Of a stretch of DNA of 64,000 nucleotides, positions 7,181-48,240 are shown piece by piece (the first letter of the stretch is position 1; every line of letters begins with the position of its first letter). Origin of the DNA: Clostridia bacterium (GTDB lineage Bacteria; Bacillota; Clostridia; TANB77; CAG-465). The position numbers and the translations under genes are program-made. The notes beneath the pieces were generated by a model. The model was not told the origin of the DNA and did no database searches. It saw only the letters and a list, made by a program, of their open reading frames with translations. The stretch covers positions 93,712 through 157,711 of the forward strand of contig JAZSJJ010000005.1 in assembly GCA_045534225.1 (NCBI GenBank). Direction: 5' to 3'.

Positions 7181-7585
7181 ATGAGTAATATTCGTGAAGG
7201 CAACGTCCGGGTGTATTACCTGGAAAGAGAAATCAGGGAAGCTCTTAATGTATTAAGAGCAAGACCACTTACAGAAAGAAGTGAGCGTCAGCTTGTCGAT
7301 GGGGCAAAGTTCCTTGAGATGATTAAGCATACTCCGTATAGCAGATATAAGACAGTTGCAAGTCTTAAAGAAAGAATTGTTAAGGAACGGAACAAGCTTA
7401 AGGCGGAACTTATTAAAATCGATACAGGCTCTACGGGACACCAGATTTCCATCTTTGAGATGTTGGATGAACGTTCGGAAGAAGAAAAGAAGAGACATGA
7501 ATCAAGAGTGGCAAAGCTCAAGGATGAAATTCACTGGCTTCACAAGTGCCTTGGTATTTGTAAAAACACGGATTATTTCAAGTAA
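7181..7585 (+). CDS. hypothetical protein with atypical composition
   Basis: GGAGG RBS. GC is about 42% and codon usage is rich in AAG and CTT, unlike the neighbouring genes. Confidence 0.5.
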   Translation: MSNIREGNVRVYYLEREIREALNVLRARPLTERSERQLVDGAKFLEMIKHTPYSRYKTVASLKERIVKERNKLKAELIKIDTGSTGHQISIFEMLDERSEEEKKRHESRVAKLKDEIHWLHKCLGICKNTDYFK

Positions 7586-13109: not shown

Positions 13110-14465
13110 ATGAAAAAAGGAATATCTTTAATAGTATTAGTAATAACTATAATAGTAATGATAATCTTAGCAGCAAGTGTAGTAATAACGATTAGCAATA
13201 CAGGGATAATAGATAAAGCAAATCAAGCAGTAGATTTATCTAACGAAAGACAAGTGCAAGATTTAGCTTCGATGATTTGGGCAGAGGTATATCTAGATGA
13301 ATCAAGAACGGATTCGATTGAAAAAGTAGTTAAAGATAAATTAGCAGATCAAGGTATAACTGATGAAAATTGGGATATAGTAGTATCTGGGACAGGAGTA
13401 TCTGTTACTACTAAGAAAGAGTCCGAGTGGCCAATTACTTGGAACATGGCGGAAATTACAAATAATATTTCAATAGATATTGGAGGCGGAATGCTATACA
13501 AAGTATCTGATGTAATGCTAACTGAAGGCCAGATGGCAGGAGCTGTAATATCTATGTCATCGGTTAGTATTATTTGCGCACCGTATTTTAATGAAGAGAA
13601 CATAAATGTTTATGCGGCTCTTGATGAAACATCTACATACCAATTAATACTGTTTGTTGTCGAAAAAGCTGGAGCTGTATGTCAACAATTTGGAGGAATC
13701 GTTTTCGAGGAATCGGGAATTTATGTGGCAGATGCGGGTGGAAATTTAGAAGGCCAAGATGTTAATTTATCATTAAATATCCAAAGTGGAATCTATGAAG
13801 AAACAATAACAGATTCATGGAGTGAAATCAAAACATATGTTGATAATGGGACTTATAAATCACATTATAAGTTGGGAGATACGAAAGGAATTAAATGCTT
13901 AGATGGTCGAACCATTTTAGTGGAAATTGTAGCATTTGATGCAGATGCTAAAGCCGATGGGACAAAGGCGTCAATTACATGGATGACAAAAAATATAGTA
14001 AACACTGGTTCGATGAATTCAACAGATACAGTTGTAGGTGGTTGGAAAGATAGTGAAATGCGTAATTGGCTACAGAATGATTTTTATGCTATTTTACCAA
14101 GTGAGGTAACAAGTTCTATTGTGTTAGTAGATAAGACATATTATGATTTTGATACTCGCTCTACATTATCTTGTTTGGATTCTCTATGGCTTCCATCTCG
14201 TCACGAAGTGTTTAGTGAAGAAACTGATACAGGTGCTTATCGTGAAGCTTCGGGAGTAGATTATAGTAGCTATTTTACAAGTAATAAAATAAGAATGAAA
14301 AAGTATAATGGATTACCACTACCTTGGTGGTTGCGTTCTAGTACAGGATTTTCGAATAGTGGAAAAGGGTTTAGTTTTGTTGAGGAAAGTGGCAAAATGT
14401 GTGGTTCAACTTCAGCTACAAGGGCGAACGATGTTTTGGGAATTGTTTTTGGATTTTGTATGTAA
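13110..14465 (+). CDS. pilin-like N-terminal domain protein, paralog 2
   Basis: AGGGGAG RBS. The N terminus MKKGISLIVLVITIIVMIILAASVVITISNTGIIDKANQAVDL is nearly identical to paralog 1. A C-terminal Cys pair is present. Confidence 0.55.
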   Translation: MKKGISLIVLVITIIVMIILAASVVITISNTGIIDKANQAVDLSNERQVQDLASMIWAEVYLDESRTDSIEKVVKDKLADQGITDENWDIVVSGTGVSVTTKKESEWPITWNMAEITNNISIDIGGGMLYKVSDVMLTEGQMAGAVISMSSVSIICAPYFNEENINVYAALDETSTYQLILFVVEKAGAVCQQFGGIVFEESGIYVADAGGNLEGQDVNLSLNIQSGIYEETITDSWSEIKTYVDNGTYKSHYKLGDTKGIKCLDGRTILVEIVAFDADAKADGTKASITWMTKNIVNTGSMNSTDTVVGGWKDSEMRNWLQNDFYAILPSEVTSSIVLVDKTYYDFDTRSTLSCLDSLWLPSRHEVFSEETDTGAYREASGVDYSSYFTSNKIRMKKYNGLPLPWWLRSSTGFSNSGKGFSFVEESGKMCGSTSATRANDVLGIVFGFCM

Positions 14466-14529: not shown

Positions 14530-15162
14530 TTAAAATCTATAAATCACATTTCTAAGTAGCATTAGTATATAAATTACTACTCCGATTGCAACTAGTACAG
14601 ACATGCCCTTAAGCTTGAATTTAGGCACTTTAAACTTGTATATGAAAAAGAATGCAATTACAAGGAAAAGTACTGTAAAAAGTATACTAGCGAGCGTTTC
14701 AACACGAGATATAATTGGAAATAGTAATGGGAGAATTAAAGCTACAGATGTAACTGGTAATCCTTCATAACTTTTTCTAGCTTCTGTTGTTTGTTCTTGG
14801 CGTTCATCTTCCATAACATTAAAGTATGCTAGTCTAATTAAAGCTGCTAGTGAGAATATTCCGTAAGAAATTAACGCATACCATTCTTTTACGCCGGTTG
14901 TATATACTATTACCACTGGAAGTATTCCGTAGCAAACAAAATCTGCTAAAGAATCTAGTTGTATTCCAAATTTCTTTTCCTTATCTGTTCTATCTTTTTT
15001 TGTTCTTGCTACTAATCCATCAAACATATCGCAAAAGCCTGCAAACATTAATGTTCCTAGCGCAAATATTGGATGTCCTTCTATTGAAGCAAATATTCCA
15101 AGTAGGCCAGATATTAGCCCCATATATGTTAAAATTACAGTGTAATTATAATACCCTATCAC
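14530..15162 (-). CDS. pssA: CDP-alcohol phosphatidyltransferase family protein (likely CDP-diacylglycerol--serine O-phosphatidyltransferase)
   Basis: D-x2-DG-x2-AR ... G-x3-D-x3-D signature (CDMFDGLVAR...GIQLDSLADFV) in a polytopic membrane protein. Confidence 0.65.
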   Translation of the reverse strand: MIGYYNYTVILTYMGLISGLLGIFASIEGHPIFALGTLMFAGFCDMFDGLVARTKKDRTDKEKKFGIQLDSLADFVCYGILPVVIVYTTGVKEWYALISYGIFSLAALIRLAYFNVMEDERQEQTTEARKSYEGLPVTSVALILPLLFPIISRVETLASILFTVLFLVIAFFFIYKFKVPKFKLKGMSVLVAIGVVIYILMLLRNVIYRF

Positions 15163-15270
15163 TTAAGTTTCCTCCGTTTATGTAACAGTGCAATTGTACA
15201 CCTTAAGGTAGTAGATGTCAAGAAATATAATAAGTGAGAATATGTGAGAAAATTTAAGTTAACATAACTA

Positions 15271-15299
15271 TTGACAAAAGGTGGAAAATGAGTTATAAT
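15271..15299 (+). promoter_or_regulatory. consensus sigma-A promoter (TTGACA-17-TATAAT)
   Basis: Perfect -35 and -10 hexamers with a 17-nt spacer, about 55 nt upstream of the first Spo0A-C-like gene. Confidence 0.6.
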
Positions 15300-15353
15300 A
15301 TTAAATGTAGACGCGAGTTTACAGAATTTTATAATTAAAATGGAGGACGTGTG

Positions 15354-15818
15354 ATGTACATAATTGTCACAACCAACAAAGCACTGGCCGAGGAGGCAAA
15401 GAAAAGAGGAGCGAACGTTTTTGAGGACGTTCAGGTAGCAGAGCCCGTTACCCGGTTCGTAAACCAGACCTATGGCGAAGGTGAGATGAAGGTTATCAAC
15501 CTCATGACATCTCTTGCAATCAAGCCCAATCTCAAGGGTTATGATTACATCAAGTATATCATGACGAGCTGCGCAAATGATCCCAAGTATCATCACAGAA
15601 GCATGACCAAGGAAATCTATCCCACATGCGCACGAGAGTTCGATACTACTCCTTCGAGAGTTGAAAGAGCAATCAGACATGCGCTTGAGAGAAGTTTCCA
15701 GGATGTACCTGAGAGATACTTCCAGATCTTCAACAGAGATCTTACCGAGCAGCCGACCAATTCTGAGTTCATCAGCATGATGAGTCAGTATCTTCACAAG
15801 CCGGTAGCCGCTGTGTAA
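15354..15818 (+). CDS. receiver-less Spo0A C-terminal (DNA-binding) domain protein, paralog 1
   Basis: Residues ~60-154 align along their whole length with the Spo0A C-terminal domain (KGYDYIKYI ... YP..A.EFDTTPSRVERAIRHALE ... PTNSEFISMM, versus B. subtilis KGYLYLREAI ... TTASRVERAIRHAIE ... PTNSEFIAMV). There is no CheY-like receiver domain. GC is about 47% against about 30% around it. GGAGG RBS. Confidence 0.75.
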   Translation: MYIIVTTNKALAEEAKKRGANVFEDVQVAEPVTRFVNQTYGEGEMKVINLMTSLAIKPNLKGYDYIKYIMTSCANDPKYHHRSMTKEIYPTCAREFDTTPSRVERAIRHALERSFQDVPERYFQIFNRDLTEQPTNSEFISMMSQYLHKPVAAV

Positions 15819-15849
15819 ACAGCAAAAACAAACGCTAAACTACTACGCA

Positions 15850-15880
15850 AAAGGGCACCCAATCTTGGGTGCCTTTTAAT
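15850..15880 (+). terminator. rho-independent terminator
   Basis: Hairpin aaagggcaccca-atct-tgggtgccttt followed by T's. Confidence 0.75.
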
Positions 15881-15916
15881 GTACAAACTACAAGAAGATG
15901 AAACACTGGAGGAGAA

Positions 15917-16492
15917 ATGTACATAATTTTAACCAATAATGGTAATCTTGAAAACTATGTAGGAAAGCTTGGTACAACAGCTTTTATGATTCCAAATAGC
16001 ATAAGAAAAGAACGGTATAACAATGAAGGTTTGGTAACAAGCATAAATCGAGGTATCGCAATAATTGCATTGGTAGATGGTGCTAAGGTGTATGAAACTG
16101 TAACTATGCAAGGATTTTTTCCTAAATATGAAACGCGAGAAGACCTTGTAGATAAGCTTATTGACGAGCTTTTTGAAGCTTTATCAATGCGTAAAAACAT
16201 GAAGGGTTATGATTACCTTAAATATATGCTTAAGCAGTATGTTGAGGATGATAATAGCTACTTAAAGTTTGTTTGCAGTGAGGTTTATCCAGAGTGTGCG
16301 GATGTTTTTCATGTTAGCGCAAATACAGTAAGTAAAAATACCAAGGATCTTATCAAGTACAGCTATGAAAGAAATGCTATGAAGTATGAAGTGTTGTTTG
16401 CTCATACAGGTATCGCACCACTTACAGAAGCACCTAAACCTAGTGCATTTTTACCTGTTATAGGTGGAAAGATTCGTGCACTCATAATTTAA
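15917..16492 (+). CDS. Spo0A C-terminal-domain-like protein, paralog 2 (diverged recognition helix)
   Basis: KGYDYLKYMLKQ ... VYPECADVFHVSANTVSKNTKDLIKYS is in register with the Spo0A_C core. It shares the N-terminal motif MYIILTNN with paralog 1 and the C-terminal motif IGGKIR with paralog 3. GGAGGAG RBS. Confidence 0.6.
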   Translation: MYIILTNNGNLENYVGKLGTTAFMIPNSIRKERYNNEGLVTSINRGIAIIALVDGAKVYETVTMQGFFPKYETREDLVDKLIDELFEALSMRKNMKGYDYLKYMLKQYVEDDNSYLKFVCSEVYPECADVFHVSANTVSKNTKDLIKYSYERNAMKYEVLFAHTGIAPLTEAPKPSAFLPVIGGKIRALII

Positions 16493-16502
16493 CAGCATAA
16501 TT

Positions 16503-16536
16503 AAAAGGCAACGTTTATGTAACGTTGCCTTTTGCT
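16503..16536 (+). terminator. rho-independent terminator
   Basis: Hairpin aaaggcaacgtt-tatgt-aacgttgccttttg. Confidence 0.75.
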
Positions 16537-16540
16537 TTAT

Positions 16541-16569
16541 ATTGACAAATTCAGTAAAAAGAGTATAAT
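16541..16569 (+). promoter_or_regulatory. consensus sigma-A promoter (TTGACA-17-TATAAT)
   Basis: Perfect hexamers immediately after the preceding terminator and about 48 nt before the ATG at 16618. Confidence 0.6.
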
Positions 16570-16617
16570 ACTTATGCGTACTTTATATAACAAAATTTTA
16601 ATAAATTGGAGGGAAAG

Positions 16618-17211
16618 ATGAAATCGTACGTTATTGTTACACGGAATATGAATCTTATCAGATGTACTGTTCCGCCAGAAGAAATGTTGCCCGTAGATGA
16701 GGAATGCAGGAAAAAAATGAAGCTTGATGCTGATGTGATCATTTTAGATCACGATCAAGATTTTGCTTTTTTGGCATTTATGGAAGGCTCTAAGGTTTAC
16801 GAAGCTCGTACAAACAAGAAGCTTGTTCCGGAATACGAAACAGAAGAGGAGCTTGTAGAAAAGATGGTAGAGCTTCTTCTTAAGGTTCTGGAAATTGACC
16901 AGAACGAAAAGGGGTATGCATATCTTAAATATATGCTTAAGCTTCATGTGGAAGACCTTGATTACAATTCCGAAACTATGGGAGATGTGGTCTATCCGGA
17001 CTGTGCTAAACATTTCGGTGTAAGCCCGAGAACTGTATCCAAACATGCAAATCGTGTTCTTAGGGATAGCATTGCAAAGAACAAGTATAGACATATTGCT
17101 CTTTGGGACAGTATGGTTGTAGTGGAAGCGGTTGAAAAGCTGAACGTTGCTGGCTTCCTTGTTATTGCAGGCGAGAAAATCAGAACCGTTATTCGTAACA
17201 ATTTAAACTAA
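16618..17211 (+). CDS. Spo0A C-terminal-domain-like protein, paralog 3, with a degenerate receiver-like N-terminal region
   Basis: EKGYAYLKYMLKLHVEDL ... VYPDCAKHFGVSPRTVSKHANRVLRDS matches the Spo0A_C core. The N terminus (YVIVTRN ... DADVIILDHD) resembles a receiver domain that has lost its acidic pocket. GGAGGG RBS. The ATG at 16618 is preferred over the upstream TTG. Confidence 0.6.
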   Translation: MKSYVIVTRNMNLIRCTVPPEEMLPVDEECRKKMKLDADVIILDHDQDFAFLAFMEGSKVYEARTNKKLVPEYETEEELVEKMVELLLKVLEIDQNEKGYAYLKYMLKLHVEDLDYNSETMGDVVYPDCAKHFGVSPRTVSKHANRVLRDSIAKNKYRHIALWDSMVVVEAVEKLNVAGFLVIAGEKIRTVIRNNLN

Positions 17212-17214
17212 AAC

Positions 17215-17255
17215 AAAAACAGACAACATTTATATAATGTTGTCTGTTTATTTCT
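17215..17255. terminator. bidirectional terminator between the Spo0A-like array and pheT
   Basis: Hairpin aaacagacaacatt-tatat-aatgttgtctgttt. Confidence 0.7.
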
Positions 17256-21129: not shown

Positions 21130-21507
21130 TTAGATAACGTGAACGATGTAACAACTGTTAAGGGTATAGATTTTATATCCTTTGTTGTTTATTTGCTCTA
21201 CGCTTCTAACGCGTGAAGTGAGTACGGTAGTACGAGAATATTTATTACCATCTGGTAACTGTTCGTAACAAAGAAACCGCTCGCCAATTTTAGGCGGCTT
21301 AGTTGCAATTACAAGTCCGACTTTAACATCATCAAACCAAATGGAGTTAAAATAGCCGTCTACTCCTTTTAATGTGTAATTGGTTTGGCATTCTCCTACG
21401 TCTTTAGATACCACTTCGTAAAATTCTCCTTCTTTAAGGAGCGTTGGGGAACTGCAAGATGTATATGTAGCAGTGCCGCCGTTGTACTTAACTAATCTAG
21501 TAGCCAT
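21130..21507 (-). CDS. hypothetical protein with atypical composition
   Basis: 125-aa ORF with about 40% GC and GC-ending codons, unlike its neighbours. No motif recognised. Confidence 0.45.
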   Translation of the reverse strand: MATRLVKYNGGTATYTSCSSPTLLKEGEFYEVVSKDVGECQTNYTLKGVDGYFNSIWFDDVKVGLVIATKPPKIGERFLCYEQLPDGNKYSRTTVLTSRVRSVEQINNKGYKIYTLNSCYIVHVI

Positions 21508-30296: not shown

Positions 30297-31778
30297 TTAT
30301 AATATTATACAGATTAATCCGCCACAACCTTCGTTAATTAATCTTTCTAATGTTTCTTGAAGTTTCATTCTAGCTTCATCTGGCATTTTGTATAGTTTAT
30401 TGTGAAGTCCTTCGTTAACTAATTCGTGTAGAGATTTGCCAAAGATATTAGATTTCCATATAGACTTAGGATCGTTTTCAAATTCTGCCAAAAGATATTT
30501 TACTAAATCTTCAGATTGTTTTTCGCTTCCAACTATAGGAGATACTTCTGTTTCAATATCTGCTTTTATCATATGAATAGATGGGGCAGAAGCTTTTAAT
30601 TTAACGCCATATTTAGTACCTTGTTTAACTATTTCTGGCTCTTCCAAAGTTAACTCATCTATATCTGGAGTTACTATTCCATAGCCTTTAATGTTAACTT
30701 CTTCTAATGCATCTTTTATCTTAGAATAATCTTTTTTTACCTTAGAGTAGTCATCAATAAGAGTAAATATATCACATTCTGAATGTATTTCGTTTCCTGT
30801 TTTTTCAGAGAGAACTTTAAAGAACCATTCGTCTTTAATATCCATTTTAATTGTTATACATCCATCAGACATATTAGCTTCGTCAACCGCGATATCTTTA
30901 AATATATCTGAATCTTTAATGAAGTCTTTAGTTAGTTTGGTTATTTCTCTAATTGAAGTATCCTTTAAGAAGTTATCTTTTACTAAAGATATTATTTTAT
31001 CTTTTAATGGATAAGTGATATCTAGCATATTAAACCAATTAGGGAGTTTGAAACTAATTTCACTTACAGGAAACTCCTCTAACACTCTAGAGAACATTTC
31101 TTTAATGTCTTTTTCTGTTAAATCTAAAGCGTTGCTAGCTACTACAGGAACATCATATTTTTCTTCTAACTCGCATCTTAGGGTTTCAGTTTTAGTTGAA
31201 GTTGGTTCTTTAGAGTTAAGCATTACAACAAATGGTTTGTTGCATTCTTTAAGTTCGCGTATTACTCTTTCTTCGGCAGCCACATAGTTTTCTCTTGGAA
31301 TATCTGTAATACTACCATCTGTTGTAACAACAAGACCAATAGTAGAATGATCACAAATTACTTTGTGTGTCCCGGTTTCAGCAGCTTTAGCAAATGGTAG
31401 CTCATCATCTGACCATGGAGTTCTTACCATTCTTGGCATATTGCCTTCAAGATGCCCCATTGCATCGTTTACCAAATATCCAACACAATCTACGAGCCTT
31501 GCTTTCATTTTAACGTTACCATTTAAGGTAATATCTACAGATTCGTTAGGAACAAATTTAGGTTCTGTAGTCATAATGGTTTTTCCAGCTGCGCTTTGTG
31601 GCAGTTCATCTATTGCACGTTCTTGTTTATGTGGATTATCTATACTTGGTATAACAAGTCTTTCCATGAAGTTCTTAATAAATGTAGATTTACCCGTTCT
31701 AACTGGCCCTACAACGCCAATATATATATCCCCGCCTGTTCTAGCAGATATATCCTTGTAAATATCTATGCTTTTCAT
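30297..31778 (-). CDS. spoIVA: stage IV sporulation protein A (spore coat morphogenetic ATPase)
   Basis: Collinear with B. subtilis SpoIVA from MKSIDIYKDISARTGGDIYIGVVGPVRTGKSTFIK (Walker A) to the C-terminal INEGCGGLICIIL. Confidence 0.9.
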   Translation of the reverse strand: MKSIDIYKDISARTGGDIYIGVVGPVRTGKSTFIKNFMERLVIPSIDNPHKQERAIDELPQSAAGKTIMTTEPKFVPNESVDITLNGNVKMKARLVDCVGYLVNDAMGHLEGNMPRMVRTPWSDDELPFAKAAETGTHKVICDHSTIGLVVTTDGSITDIPRENYVAAEERVIRELKECNKPFVVMLNSKEPTSTKTETLRCELEEKYDVPVVASNALDLTEKDIKEMFSRVLEEFPVSEISFKLPNWFNMLDITYPLKDKIISLVKDNFLKDTSIREITKLTKDFIKDSDIFKDIAVDEANMSDGCITIKMDIKDEWFFKVLSEKTGNEIHSECDIFTLIDDYSKVKKDYSKIKDALEEVNIKGYGIVTPDIDELTLEEPEIVKQGTKYGVKLKASAPSIHMIKADIETEVSPIVGSEKQSEDLVKYLLAEFENDPKSIWKSNIFGKSLHELVNEGLHNKLYKMPDEARMKLQETLERLINEGCGGLICIIL

Positions 31779-45789: not shown

Positions 45790-45825
45790 CCCCTAAGGTA
45801 AATCCTTAGGGGAATATTTTTATTC
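45790..45825. terminator. bidirectional terminator
   Basis: Hairpin cccctaagg-taaat-ccttagggg flanked by A and T runs. Confidence 0.7.
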
Positions 45826-48240
45826 ATTTTTGTTATCACCAGTATCAATTATAATATCAAAATCTGTAGGATTATTGAAATCGAATGATTGAACTGCTGG
45901 TTGATCATCTGTATCAATAATTGGTTCTACAAGGTTGTCATTTTCTTTTATTGCGTTAGATGAGAAACTATTTGTAGTAACTGAGTTTGCATCACTAAAT
46001 ATGTTGTCATCATCTTCATCTAAAATACTTGATGCTGCATTTGATGTAAGTGGTTTGTTTATCATAAACTTTTCAAAGTTGTACATATATGCTGGATGTT
46101 TTTGTTTGTATTTTTCTTCAAGGAAATCAACTTTACCTTCACCGAAAATACTATTTCCATTATCAAGTTTAGTCTTGTAGTAAATTGCTCCAAATTTATG
46201 CTCTGCAATTTTATGAACTTTGAATCTTTCTTTATCTTTAAGAGATACGGATTTCTTAGCCTTGAAGTTATCTGTTGGATCAAAGCTTGAAGACATATCT
46301 ACTTTCTTAGTCATACCGAAAGCTTTATTCCAGTATTCACTATCTTCAGGTACTGTATCACCAAATACGATTTGAGTTTTTGTATTGGCAAGTACAACTT
46401 GTCTATAATATTCAAAGCCTTTATTCTTTTCAAGTTGTGATAAGTTTTGTATTGCTATTGTAGCACCACATCTATATTTTCTAAATAGTGTGAACATTAC
46501 TTCTGTATCTTTGTTGATGTATTCAGGGAATTCATCAATGTATAAGAAGTGAGGTATACGAGAATCTTCTGAACCAGGTCTTCTTAGTACTGCGTCTTGG
46601 AATTGTAGTATGAAGAACATACCGAATGCCTTAGAAGCAATCATACCAAGTTCACCTTTTCTAGAACATGCTGTAATAACTTTACCTTCTCTTAAAGCAG
46701 CGTCAAAGTCTATAACATTTGTTCTACCACATAGAGCTCTCTTAATACCAGGATGTCTTAATAAGTTGTTTAATTGAGTTATAGCACCGTACAAGTATCT
46801 TTCGGTATCTTTTCTACCACTACCTCTTGTACCAGGTATTTCAAAACCATTTATATTTAATGTTGGTTTATAGAAGTTCTTCTCAAAGTATGCAATAAGT
46901 AGTTTATACTTTTCTGCAAGCTCTGGAATTTTCTTCATATCTTCTGTCATTTCTTCAACTTTATCAAAGTTGTATAGCATATCTAACACGTCTTCAAGTG
47001 ATGGTAATGCACCATTGTTAAGTCTTGGATACATTTCTTTAAGAAGTATAGATAGGTTTTGGAATGCGTCTGAAGTTAAGTTAGCAAAGAATGCTTCTTC
47101 TTTAGCGCCTTCACTTTGTTGCATAGATTTTAGAACGTCTGCTATTATTGATGCAACCTTAGCTGGATCTTCAATAGCAAATGGGTTCATACTTAATGTA
47201 TGTTCTGGATCTGCTGGGTCTATAGTTAATACATCGATGTCGAAGTTCTTAGCAACATTTGTAAAGTTTGTTACGTATGAGCCATCGTTTTCAACAACTG
47301 TAACACCAACACCACGATATACAACTTCACCAGTTTCGCTGTTATTATATAATATTACATCTTTTAACTCTGAGTAAAATTCTTTTTCTCTGCCTTTTTT
47401 AGGTTGTAAGTAATTTAAACTAAAATTTAGATTTATATATTCGTTAGAGAAAGGACCTTCTATATATGCAATACCTTTCTTTAATAATTCATAACCTAAT
47501 TTTTTAGAATACTCACGCAAGAAGTATTTCTTTTCAAGGTCTCTAGCACTCATTGGTAATAATACCATTGCTGTTTTACCAGTACCAGTAGCACCTTGTA
47601 CAAGTGTAGATTCCATTCTCTTCTTTTCAGGAACTACAATAGGTTTTAATGTTTCTACGTCTTTACATATAATATTTTCGCAAGTAAATATTCCGTTGTT
47701 AGATTTTGGTTTTTTAACACCTAAACCACCAAATGCTATAATACCTTTAGTAATATCGTCATCTCTTAATACTAGTAAAGCATAATCTACTAAAGAGAAT
47801 ATAGATATAAATGGTATACAGAAACAGAATGTTTTAATTGCTGGTCCAAATAATTCTGGATATTCAGTTATTAATAGATTATAGTTAGGTAGTTTTTCTA
47901 ACAACATCCAAACTACTTTATTGATGTTTGTTATAATTAATGAGTTTGTTATAGCACCCATTATACCAACGCCAATTATAAACCATTTAATTCTAGCGTC
48001 TTTGCCAGATATTAGTTTAGAGTTTACTCCGTATGAATACCATAATACAGGGCATACTAATGCGATAGCATATAGTATTGGATCTGGATAAATTGGTAAT
48101 CTACCAGCTGGTACTACAAATAATGTAAATACTTGTACTATTATAAATGCAACGACTATCATGGTAAAGAAACCAAATATCGATGCGATAAATTTGTTTT
48201 GATCTTTTATTTTAAGTTTACTAAGAATGTTATATAACAA
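45820..48240 (-). CDS. type IV secretion coupling protein-like ATPase (VirD4/TraG/TraD family), orphan
   Basis: Four to five N-terminal transmembrane helices; Walker A GATGTGKT; the characteristic C-terminal block FLYIDEFPEY ... IAIQNLSQLEKNKG ... NTKTQIVFGDTVPEDSEYWNKAFG (the LDEF / QSxxQL / TqIvfg pattern of T4CPs). No other T4SS genes are nearby. Confidence 0.65.
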   Translation of the reverse strand: MLYNILSKLKIKDQNKFIASIFGFFTMIVVAFIIVQVFTLFVVPAGRLPIYPDPILYAIALVCPVLWYSYGVNSKLISGKDARIKWFIIGVGIMGAITNSLIITNINKVVWMLLEKLPNYNLLITEYPELFGPAIKTFCFCIPFISIFSLVDYALLVLRDDDITKGIIAFGGLGVKKPKSNNGIFTCENIICKDVETLKPIVVPEKKRMESTLVQGATGTGKTAMVLLPMSARDLEKKYFLREYSKKLGYELLKKGIAYIEGPFSNEYINLNFSLNYLQPKKGREKEFYSELKDVILYNNSETGEVVYRGVGVTVVENDGSYVTNFTNVAKNFDIDVLTIDPADPEHTLSMNPFAIEDPAKVASIIADVLKSMQQSEGAKEEAFFANLTSDAFQNLSILLKEMYPRLNNGALPSLEDVLDMLYNFDKVEEMTEDMKKIPELAEKYKLLIAYFEKNFYKPTLNINGFEIPGTRGSGRKDTERYLYGAITQLNNLLRHPGIKRALCGRTNVIDFDAALREGKVITACSRKGELGMIASKAFGMFFILQFQDAVLRRPGSEDSRIPHFLYIDEFPEYINKDTEVMFTLFRKYRCGATIAIQNLSQLEKNKGFEYYRQVVLANTKTQIVFGDTVPEDSEYWNKAFGMTKKVDMSSSFDPTDNFKAKKSVSLKDKERFKVHKIAEHKFGAIYYKTKLDNGNSIFGEGKVDFLEEKYKQKHPAYMYNFEKFMINKPLTSNAASSILDEDDDNIFSDANSVTTNSFSSNAIKENDNLVEPIIDTDDQPAVQSFDFNNPTDFDIIIDTGDNKNE

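Follow-up and report, generated by a model that had tools for sequence, protein, structure and literature searches.

The DNA stretch analyzed here (64,000 nucleotides of contig JAZSJJ010000005.1 from a Clostridia bacterium, hereafter the window) carries a tandem array of three genes, g1, g2, and g3. Each encodes a protein that ends in the effector domain of the sporulation regulator Spo0A and lacks its receiver domain. The three open reading frames (ORFs) had been recognized in a first-pass annotation of the window, and we found them at the same coordinates:

g1, 15354-15818, plus strand: receiver-less Spo0A derivative of 154 amino acids (aa), in which residues 1-26 form a beta-alpha-beta unit that a disordered linker joins to a complete Spo0A_C domain (helix SRVERAIRHA); GC content at third codon positions (GC3) 0.56; ratio of nonsynonymous to synonymous divergence (dN/dS) 0.06-0.17
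g2, 15917-16492, plus strand: 191 aa, with two copies of the N-terminal unit and a diverged Spo0A_C (helix NTVSKNTKDL); dN/dS 0.11-0.19
g3, 16618-17211, plus strand: 197 aa, with a duplicated N-terminal unit and the most diverged Spo0A_C (helix RTVSKHANRV); dN/dS 0.18-0.32

All three proteins carry the Spo0A effector domain. Against PF08769 (Spo0A_C, gathering score 25), g1 scored 91.3 bits (E 4.7e-26, residues 48-147), g2 49.3 bits (E 5.5e-13), and g3 29.7 bits (E 6.7e-07), while the Pfam search returned no match to the receiver domain PF00072 for any of them, even at E <= 1, as the first-pass annotation had predicted. Alignment of the Spo0A equivalog model TIGR02875 to the three proteins was confined to the C-terminal half, with 76.4, 33.7, and 22.9 bits for g1, g2, and g3, respectively, below the cutoff of 200. 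The g1 protein matched the sequences of the Protein Data Bank (PDB) entries 1lq1 and 1fc3 with an E of ~1e-13 and is collinear with canonical Spo0A in BLASTP from about residue 81 to the C-terminus. AlphaFold2 (AF2) modeling covered g1 and g3, and the sole PDB matches of these models were again 1lq1 and 1fc3, with target-normalized template modeling (TM) scores of 0.77-0.87. Both models thus have the six-helix effector fold, including the helix-turn-helix, of these two structures. The predicted local distance difference test (pLDDT) value is above 90 for the effector domain of g1 and mostly 80-97 for that of g3. When three canonical Spo0A proteins were searched by tblastn against all frames of the window, only the three effector domains and no receiver were found. 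A receiver hidden upstream or in another frame is ruled out by this search and by the boundary of the g1 ORF, where a stop codon lies directly upstream of the GTG at 15351 and the promoter just 5′ of that. Judging by their sequences, the three proteins have no receiver, no phospho-acceptor aspartate, and no acidic pocket.

The motifs quoted earlier for these proteins (KGYDY, YPTCAREFDTTPSRVERAIRHA, PTNSEFISM, NTVSKNTKDLIKYS, RTVSKHANRVLRDS, DADVIILDHD, and IGGKIR/AGEKIR) are all present, and the claim of an intact recognition helix in g1 and diverged helices in g2 and g3 was confirmed by scoring 45 positions that are invariant among 22 canonical Spo0A effector domains. Of these, g1 keeps 28, g2 12, and g3 9. 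The g1 protein retains PTNSEF and the entire recognition helix (S-R-V-E-R-A-I-R-H-A), with which Spo0A reads the 0A box, and this helix is perfectly conserved in the g1 family although other parts of the protein diverge to 46% identity. In g2 and g3, all recognition-helix contact positions are replaced relative to Spo0A; each helix is well conserved inside its own family and still basic. The sigma-A activating region, which we take to be residues 227-240 of B. subtilis Spo0A as counted on the 1LQ1 sequence, has an equivalent in g1 that differs from Spo0A, yet is conserved among the g1 family (VPEKY..IFGR). Two cysteines, C73 and C92 (15570-15572 and 15627-15629), are also invariant in the g1 family, at positions where canonical Spo0A has V and I/V, and the context of C92, YPxCA, is common to g2 and g3. 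Conceivably, these residues have a redox or metal role.

Residues 1-26 of g1, MYIIVTTNKALAEEAKKRGANVFEDV, make up a strand-helix-strand unit, six positions of which are invariant in the g1 family (I4, V5, T6, A15, G19, and A20). The first-pass annotation had described the N-terminus of g1 as unrelated and the motif YIIxTxN as restricted to g2 and g3. Neither description holds, as g1 itself starts with MYIIVTTN and its first ~26 residues are this conserved unit. In profile comparisons, g2 and g3 matched the g1 family with a probability of 99.6 and canonical Spo0A with 97.1; g1 aligned to their residues 39-188, and their two N-terminal halves (residues 1-28 and 37-64) matched the g1 unit with probabilities of 96 and 95. 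Because g2 and g3 are closer to g1 and both of their N-terminal halves match its unit, we conclude from these profiles that they descend from a g1-type gene with a duplicated N-terminal unit. An exhaustive profile search with the g2/g3 N-terminal domain returned 4 of 1.84 billion cluster representatives, all from its own family; the domain was found nowhere outside that family, phages included. The N-terminal unit may be a receiver remnant, as full-length BLASTP and hhalign alignments are collinear into receiver beta4-alpha4-beta5. When the 28-residue g1 unit was compared alone with the receiver, the probability was 1.8%, and beta1-alpha1-beta2 was favored. The stretch DADVIILDHD, formerly called receiver-like, aligns to the g1 N-terminal unit and has no demonstrable receiver similarity.

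Relatives of the array comprise ~27 g1-type, 13 g2-type, and 3 g3-type proteins. The g1 relatives are ~150 aa long with Spo0A_C only, after which the match list jumps to canonical Spo0A. The genomes that hold close relatives of the locus are those of uncultured “Clostridia bacterium” from sheep rectum and other gut samples. The order pssA-like gene, array, pheT, pheS is constant in loci L001, L002, and L004-L011, across g1 identities of 46-99%. The number of array genes varies: g1 stands alone in L002, L007, and L009, g1 and g2 are found in L005 and L006, and all three genes are found in the window, L001, L003 (whose contig ends inside g3), L004, L010, and L011. The locus is chromosomal and inherited vertically and does not constitute an island. 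A simple recent horizontal origin, which had been raised for these genes, does not fit the position of g1, which adjoins pheT in all relatives, the most distant of them at 46% identity.

The dN/dS values listed above were obtained against orthologs from related metagenome-assembled genomes of uncultured gut/ruminant Clostridia, and the reading frames are intact throughout; by these measures, g1, g2, and g3 are under purifying selection and are neither fragments nor pseudogenes. The first-pass annotation had named the lack of a significant Spo0A_C match, a receiver upstream, or remains of a single disrupted spo0A as observations that would speak against its proposal. What we found was significant matches, no upstream receiver, and intact genes under purifying selection. 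Its estimate of 42-48% GC against about 30% in the flanks applies to g1 (46%) but not to g2 (34%) or g3 (40%), and the flanks are at ~32-33%. The difference is far more pronounced in GC3, which in the window is 0.56 for g1, 0.38 for g3, and 0.27 for g2, against 0.11-0.23 for the flanks; across orthologs, it is 0.42-0.56 for g1, 0.31-0.39 for g3, and 0.27-0.34 for g2, against 0.11-0.23 for nearly all other genes. Translational selection was rejected as the source of the high GC3, as the ribosomal protein L21 gene has a GC3 of 0.15. An antisense ORF of 212 aa (15159-15797, minus strand) covers nearly all of g1. It is open in close relatives only, with one to three stops in distant orthologs, and is a by-product of g1 codon usage, which avoids TTA, CTA, and TCA.

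Synonymous divergence (dS) of the three genes is two to five times that of pssA, pheT, and pheS. Between L002 and the window, g1 is 48% identical, whereas PheT is 93.6% identical. DNA identity between L003 and the window is mostly 92-100% from pssA through the start of g2 (77% in the first 100-nucleotide window), falls to 71-79% over a recombinant segment in g2 (15998-16397), and then returns to 97-100%. The relatedness order of the loci also differs among g1, g2, and g3. Together with the high GC3, the elevated dS and the mosaic structure of g2 would fit alleles that are exchanged and kept diverse.

The array is furnished with the following expression signals:

g1 promoter, 15271-15299, plus strand: TTGACA-17-TATAAT, perfect sigma-70/sigma-A consensus
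g1 leader hairpin, 15306-15323, plus strand: directly after the -10 hexamer; 7-bp stem and 4-6-nucleotide loop, TGTAGAC-GCGA-GTTTACA
invariant 10-mer TTATAATTAA, 15329-15338, plus strand: after the leader hairpin and before the ribosome-binding site
g1 terminator, hairpin 15854-15873 with T-tract to 15878, plus strand: only four T
g2 terminator hairpin, 16502-16534, plus strand: kept in L001 and L003; a different hairpin in the same place in L010 and L011
g3 promoter, 16542-16569, plus strand: TTGACA-16-TATAAT; kept in L001, L003, L010, and L011, absent from L004
shared g3/pheT terminator, 17217-17249, bidirectional: hairpin

Perfect TTGACA-17-TATAAT promoters had been reported for g1 and g3. 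This is correct for g1, but the spacer of g3 is 16. An own hairpin terminator for each gene, as also reported, is present at all three, as is a ribosome-binding site. Both g1 promoter hexamers are kept in seven close loci, and in the distant L002, L007, and L009, TTGACA is kept, with the -10 hexamer kept or one base off. These distant single-gene loci also retain the 7-bp stem, TTATAATTAA, and the ribosome-binding site. The 10-mer is unchanged in nine of nine aligned g1 loci, even where the identity of the g1 protein is 46-56%. The 190 nucleotides between pssA and g1 show 89% identity across seven loci, above the conservation of g1 synonymous sites.

The leader element at 15306-15323 is probably a 5′-terminal RNA hairpin, which perhaps stabilizes the transcript. 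It was predicted independently by RNAalifold, and its site is unique in the window. In the alignment, 96% of cells are paired, compared with 21-45% when the partners are slid. One base pair of the stem is compensatory and two are G-U wobbles, and the loop is GCGA, GGUA, or UUCG depending on the locus; covariation is modest, with 278 of 500 shuffles reaching the observed value. A DNA operator formed by the same palindrome is less favored, because of the G-U wobbles and the tetraloop-type loops. The stem of the g1 terminator shows compensatory changes across loci. This terminator is possibly leaky into g2, which has no recognizable strong promoter and starts ~40 nucleotides after it.

The neighborhood of the array is one of housekeeping genes: dnaE, a diacylglycerol kinase gene, leuS, the pssA-like gene, and pheST, together with a gene for a GGDEF-EAL protein and four tRNAs. 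Relative to g1, the pssA-like gene is oriented divergently, whereas pheT and pheS, which have a T-box leader, converge with g3. As stated in the first-pass annotation, a CotJC-like gene, a DivIVA-domain gene, and spoIIP lie within 15 kb of the array, and we add SpoIVA (30297-31778) to this list. With these four genes in the window, the organism is therefore a spore-former. The spo0A gene normally sits after spoIVB, and spoIVB is not in the window.

We consider it probable that the array is a chromosomal and vertically inherited family of Spo0A-derived transcription factors, restricted to one clade of uncultured, spore-forming gut/ruminant Clostridia, in which g1 would act at 0A boxes independently of phosphorylation and g2 and g3 would act elsewhere. 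In this scheme, g1 would be the ancestral member, always beside pheT and with the full Spo0A effector fold and recognition helix. Expressed from its perfect sigma-A promoter via the conserved leader hairpin, it would bind 0A-box DNA (TGTCGAA-like), and its activity would be set by its amount and not by the phosphorelay. We infer phosphorylation-independent binding from the behavior of the Spo0A DNA-binding domain, which in isolation recognizes its legitimate targets in the absence of phosphorylation (PMC3485338). The first-pass annotation had proposed phosphorylation-independent activators or competitors; the independent binding remains the most reasonable assumption, but “activator” does not sit well with an activating region unlike that of Spo0A. 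Because this surface differs, g1 is more likely to occupy 0A boxes, as a repressor or as a competitor of phosphorylated Spo0A (Spo0A~P), than to be a classical activator. Tandem duplication of a g1-like gene gave rise to g2 and g3, in which the N-terminal unit is doubled and which probably recognize different DNA sites because their base-contacting residues are replaced. As a guess, the N-terminal unit could be a self-association or partner-binding module that takes the place of phosphorylation-driven dimerization.

Several observations weigh against this scheme. The intergenic regions of the array contain no 0A box, even with one mismatch allowed, and the window as a whole shows no enrichment of the exact motif; neither autoregulation nor regulation by Spo0A is therefore indicated. 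The sigma-A activating surface is not conserved in g1, which makes the sign of its regulation a guess. The N-terminal domain of g3 was modeled with low confidence (pLDDT below 50 for residues 1-69 in the AF2 model). Compared alone, neither the g1 unit nor the g2/g3 N-terminal domain was significantly similar to the receiver, and the latter gave no match at all. A canonical spo0A of the clade was not found among the AT-rich Spo0A candidates, whose contigs belong to other lineages (RNase Y 47% identical, nothing else matching). Finally, the GC3, the dS, and the recombinant g2 point to a regime unlike that of a plain housekeeping regulator.

Receiver-less Spo0A is, as a kind, already known from gut phages and mobile elements. 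What is new is that it is chromosomal and clade-wide here, with three genes, a private duplicated N-terminal unit, and two re-specified recognition helices. Spo0A_C is usually taken as a marker of Spo0A itself, and the activity of Spo0A is thought to be set by phosphorylation; the array shows that the effector domain is able to evolve as an independent transcription-factor scaffold. Surveys that equate PF08769 matches with Spo0A over-call sporulation capacity or paralog number unless a receiver is required. Should g1 compete with Spo0A~P at 0A boxes or take its place there, the sporulation decision of gut Clostridia would have an input independent of the phosphorelay, and g1 would lend itself to comparison with the truncated copies of phages. 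More tentatively, and with low confidence, one can imagine that the array is a fast-evolving, recombining cassette, in which the new specificities of g2 and g3 and the 0A-box binder g1 form a clade-specific layer of control over sporulation entry. Such a cassette might be the response of the host to Spo0A mimics carried by phages, and the shuffling of alleles and their elevated divergence would then be accounted for.

It seems rather unlikely that the genes are instead domesticated cargo of a phage or mobile element, which derive from a truncated spo0A and serve, or once served, to interfere with sporulation of the host or to resist such interference. A cargo origin would account for the foreign composition (GC3 of g1 0.42-0.56 against 0.16-0.22 in the flanks, with a dS two to five times that of the flanks) and for the allele shuffling seen in the recombinant g2 segment and the incongruent relatedness of g1, g2, and g3. 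Receiver-less truncated spo0A genes with the effector domain only have been described in gut phages, where signal-independent action was inferred (Schwartz 2023, PMC10294663), and PF08769 is enriched on mobile elements of gut Firmicutes (Jiang 2019, PMC6907783). We found Spo0A_C in 13 phage records, at least 140 IMG/VR contigs, two PHROG families, and four BFVD proteins, and phrog_24603 matched g1, g2, and g3 with E values of 2e-15, 1e-07, and 1e-04, respectively. However, the array has neither integrase or recombinase genes nor phage genes within 10 kb, its position between pssA and pheT is fixed down to 46% identity, and the non-coding region upstream is 89% conserved. The best viral relatives of g1 share the effector domain only, with at most 43% identity over full-domain matches and 48% over one 67-residue fragment, and on this ground recent phage transfer was rejected. 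The N-terminal domain of g2 and g3, found nowhere else, also speaks against cargo.

Three other explanations concern what the proteins do. They might act through protein contacts, with the N-terminal unit or an altered surface binding Spo0A, a sigma factor, or a kinase and thereby tuning sporulation in the manner of anti-activators. The invariance of the unit in the g1 family and its duplication in g2 and g3 are consistent with this, as are the loss of every canonical DNA-contact residue from g2 and g3 and the lack of nearby 0A boxes. We nevertheless regard it as quite improbable: the perfect conservation of the g1 helix despite divergence to 46% points to selection on DNA binding, the g2 and g3 helices are conserved in each family and basic, and the helix-turn-helix fold is predicted with high confidence in the AF2 models. 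A more extreme version of the cassette idea is that g1 is the only Spo0A of the clade, a master regulator that has lost its receiver, so that sporulation entry would be set by g1 transcription and translation and not by phosphorylation. The g1 gene keeps all recognition-helix residues, is collinear with canonical Spo0A over the C-terminal part, and occupies one fixed locus in every clade member examined, and neither a canonical spo0A nor a receiver was found within the 64-kb window. However, that window is a small part of the genome and excludes spoIVB, the usual neighbor of spo0A; every known spore-former has a receiver-containing Spo0A, which is considered universal in these organisms (preprint 10.1101/2022.02.25.481979; PMC6136694); the sigma-A activating surface is not conserved; and a perfect sigma-A promoter implies growth-phase expression, which is hard to square with a constitutive trigger of sporulation. 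We therefore find this version very unlikely. That the genes are functionless, decaying duplicates or fragments of a disrupted spo0A was suggested by their being shorter than Spo0A and by a g3 score barely above the Pfam threshold (29.7 versus 25). This was refuted by the tests made here: frames are intact in all loci with a dN/dS of 0.06-0.32, the signals are conserved (consensus promoters of g1 and g3, and a ribosome-binding site and terminator at all three genes), and each gene holds a complete effector domain and not a complementary piece.

Our preferred reading, a chromosomal family of Spo0A-derived transcription factors, can be placed next to the systems already known. With Spo0A, the array proteins share the effector family and fold, and g1 also the recognition helix, PTNSEF, and the collinearity from about residue 81. 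Unlike Spo0A, they have no receiver, score far under the TIGR02875 cutoff, and are not encoded beside spoIVB; moreover, g1 differs in the sigma-A activating region and g2 and g3 in the DNA-contact residues. The truncated spo0A genes of gut phages are similar in size and likewise effector only, and phosphorylation-independent action is presumed for both. In contrast to them, the array is chromosomal at a fixed housekeeping site (10 loci), is inherited vertically across the clade, and consists of three paralogs with a private N-terminal unit. The laboratory analogue is the C-terminal fragment of B. subtilis Spo0A, or sad67, which is constitutively active (Grimsley 1994 and Ireton 1993, as cited in PMC10294663); there, too, removal of the receiver uncouples DNA binding from phosphorylation. 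Those proteins are engineered and retain the native activating surface, whereas g1 occurs naturally, has long been conserved, differs in this surface, and carries an extra conserved N-terminal unit.

Other natural receiver-less Spo0A_C proteins were also seen. P0032 (loci L013-L015), a g1-like 147-aa protein, is chromosomal in another lineage and starts with MYIIVTEN, similar to g1; it is 37% identical and is not encoded beside pheT. It is indexed in 37 blocks of the contig collection, and 24 contigs were read. Other arrangements of the domain were also seen. P0053, P0054, P0075, and P0077 are receiver-less Spo0A_C proteins with a Cys-rich CPG..C..C..C N-terminus, and P0035, P0071, and P0111 combine Spo0A_C with receiver beta1-alpha1-beta2 only.

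Elsewhere in the window, the product of 13110-14465 (451 aa) has a DUF6273 domain and a hydrophobic N-terminus resembling that of pilins. Its identity to the L005 and L006 proteins is 99%, but the stretch is not alignable in L003 and hence varies among close relatives. At a distance of about 30 kb from the array, 45820-48240 (minus strand) holds a gene for a TraG/VirD4-like coupling protein (T4SS-DNA_transf, TraG-D_C), which is not linked to the array and may mark the remnant of a conjugative element. Two small genes, 7181-7585 and 21130-21507, have a raised GC3 of 0.40 and 0.34, respectively. For the latter, a weak precomputed Phage_T4_Y07B match is on record for the L001 ortholog only, with none in the Pfam scan of the window; the former is conserved in L010.

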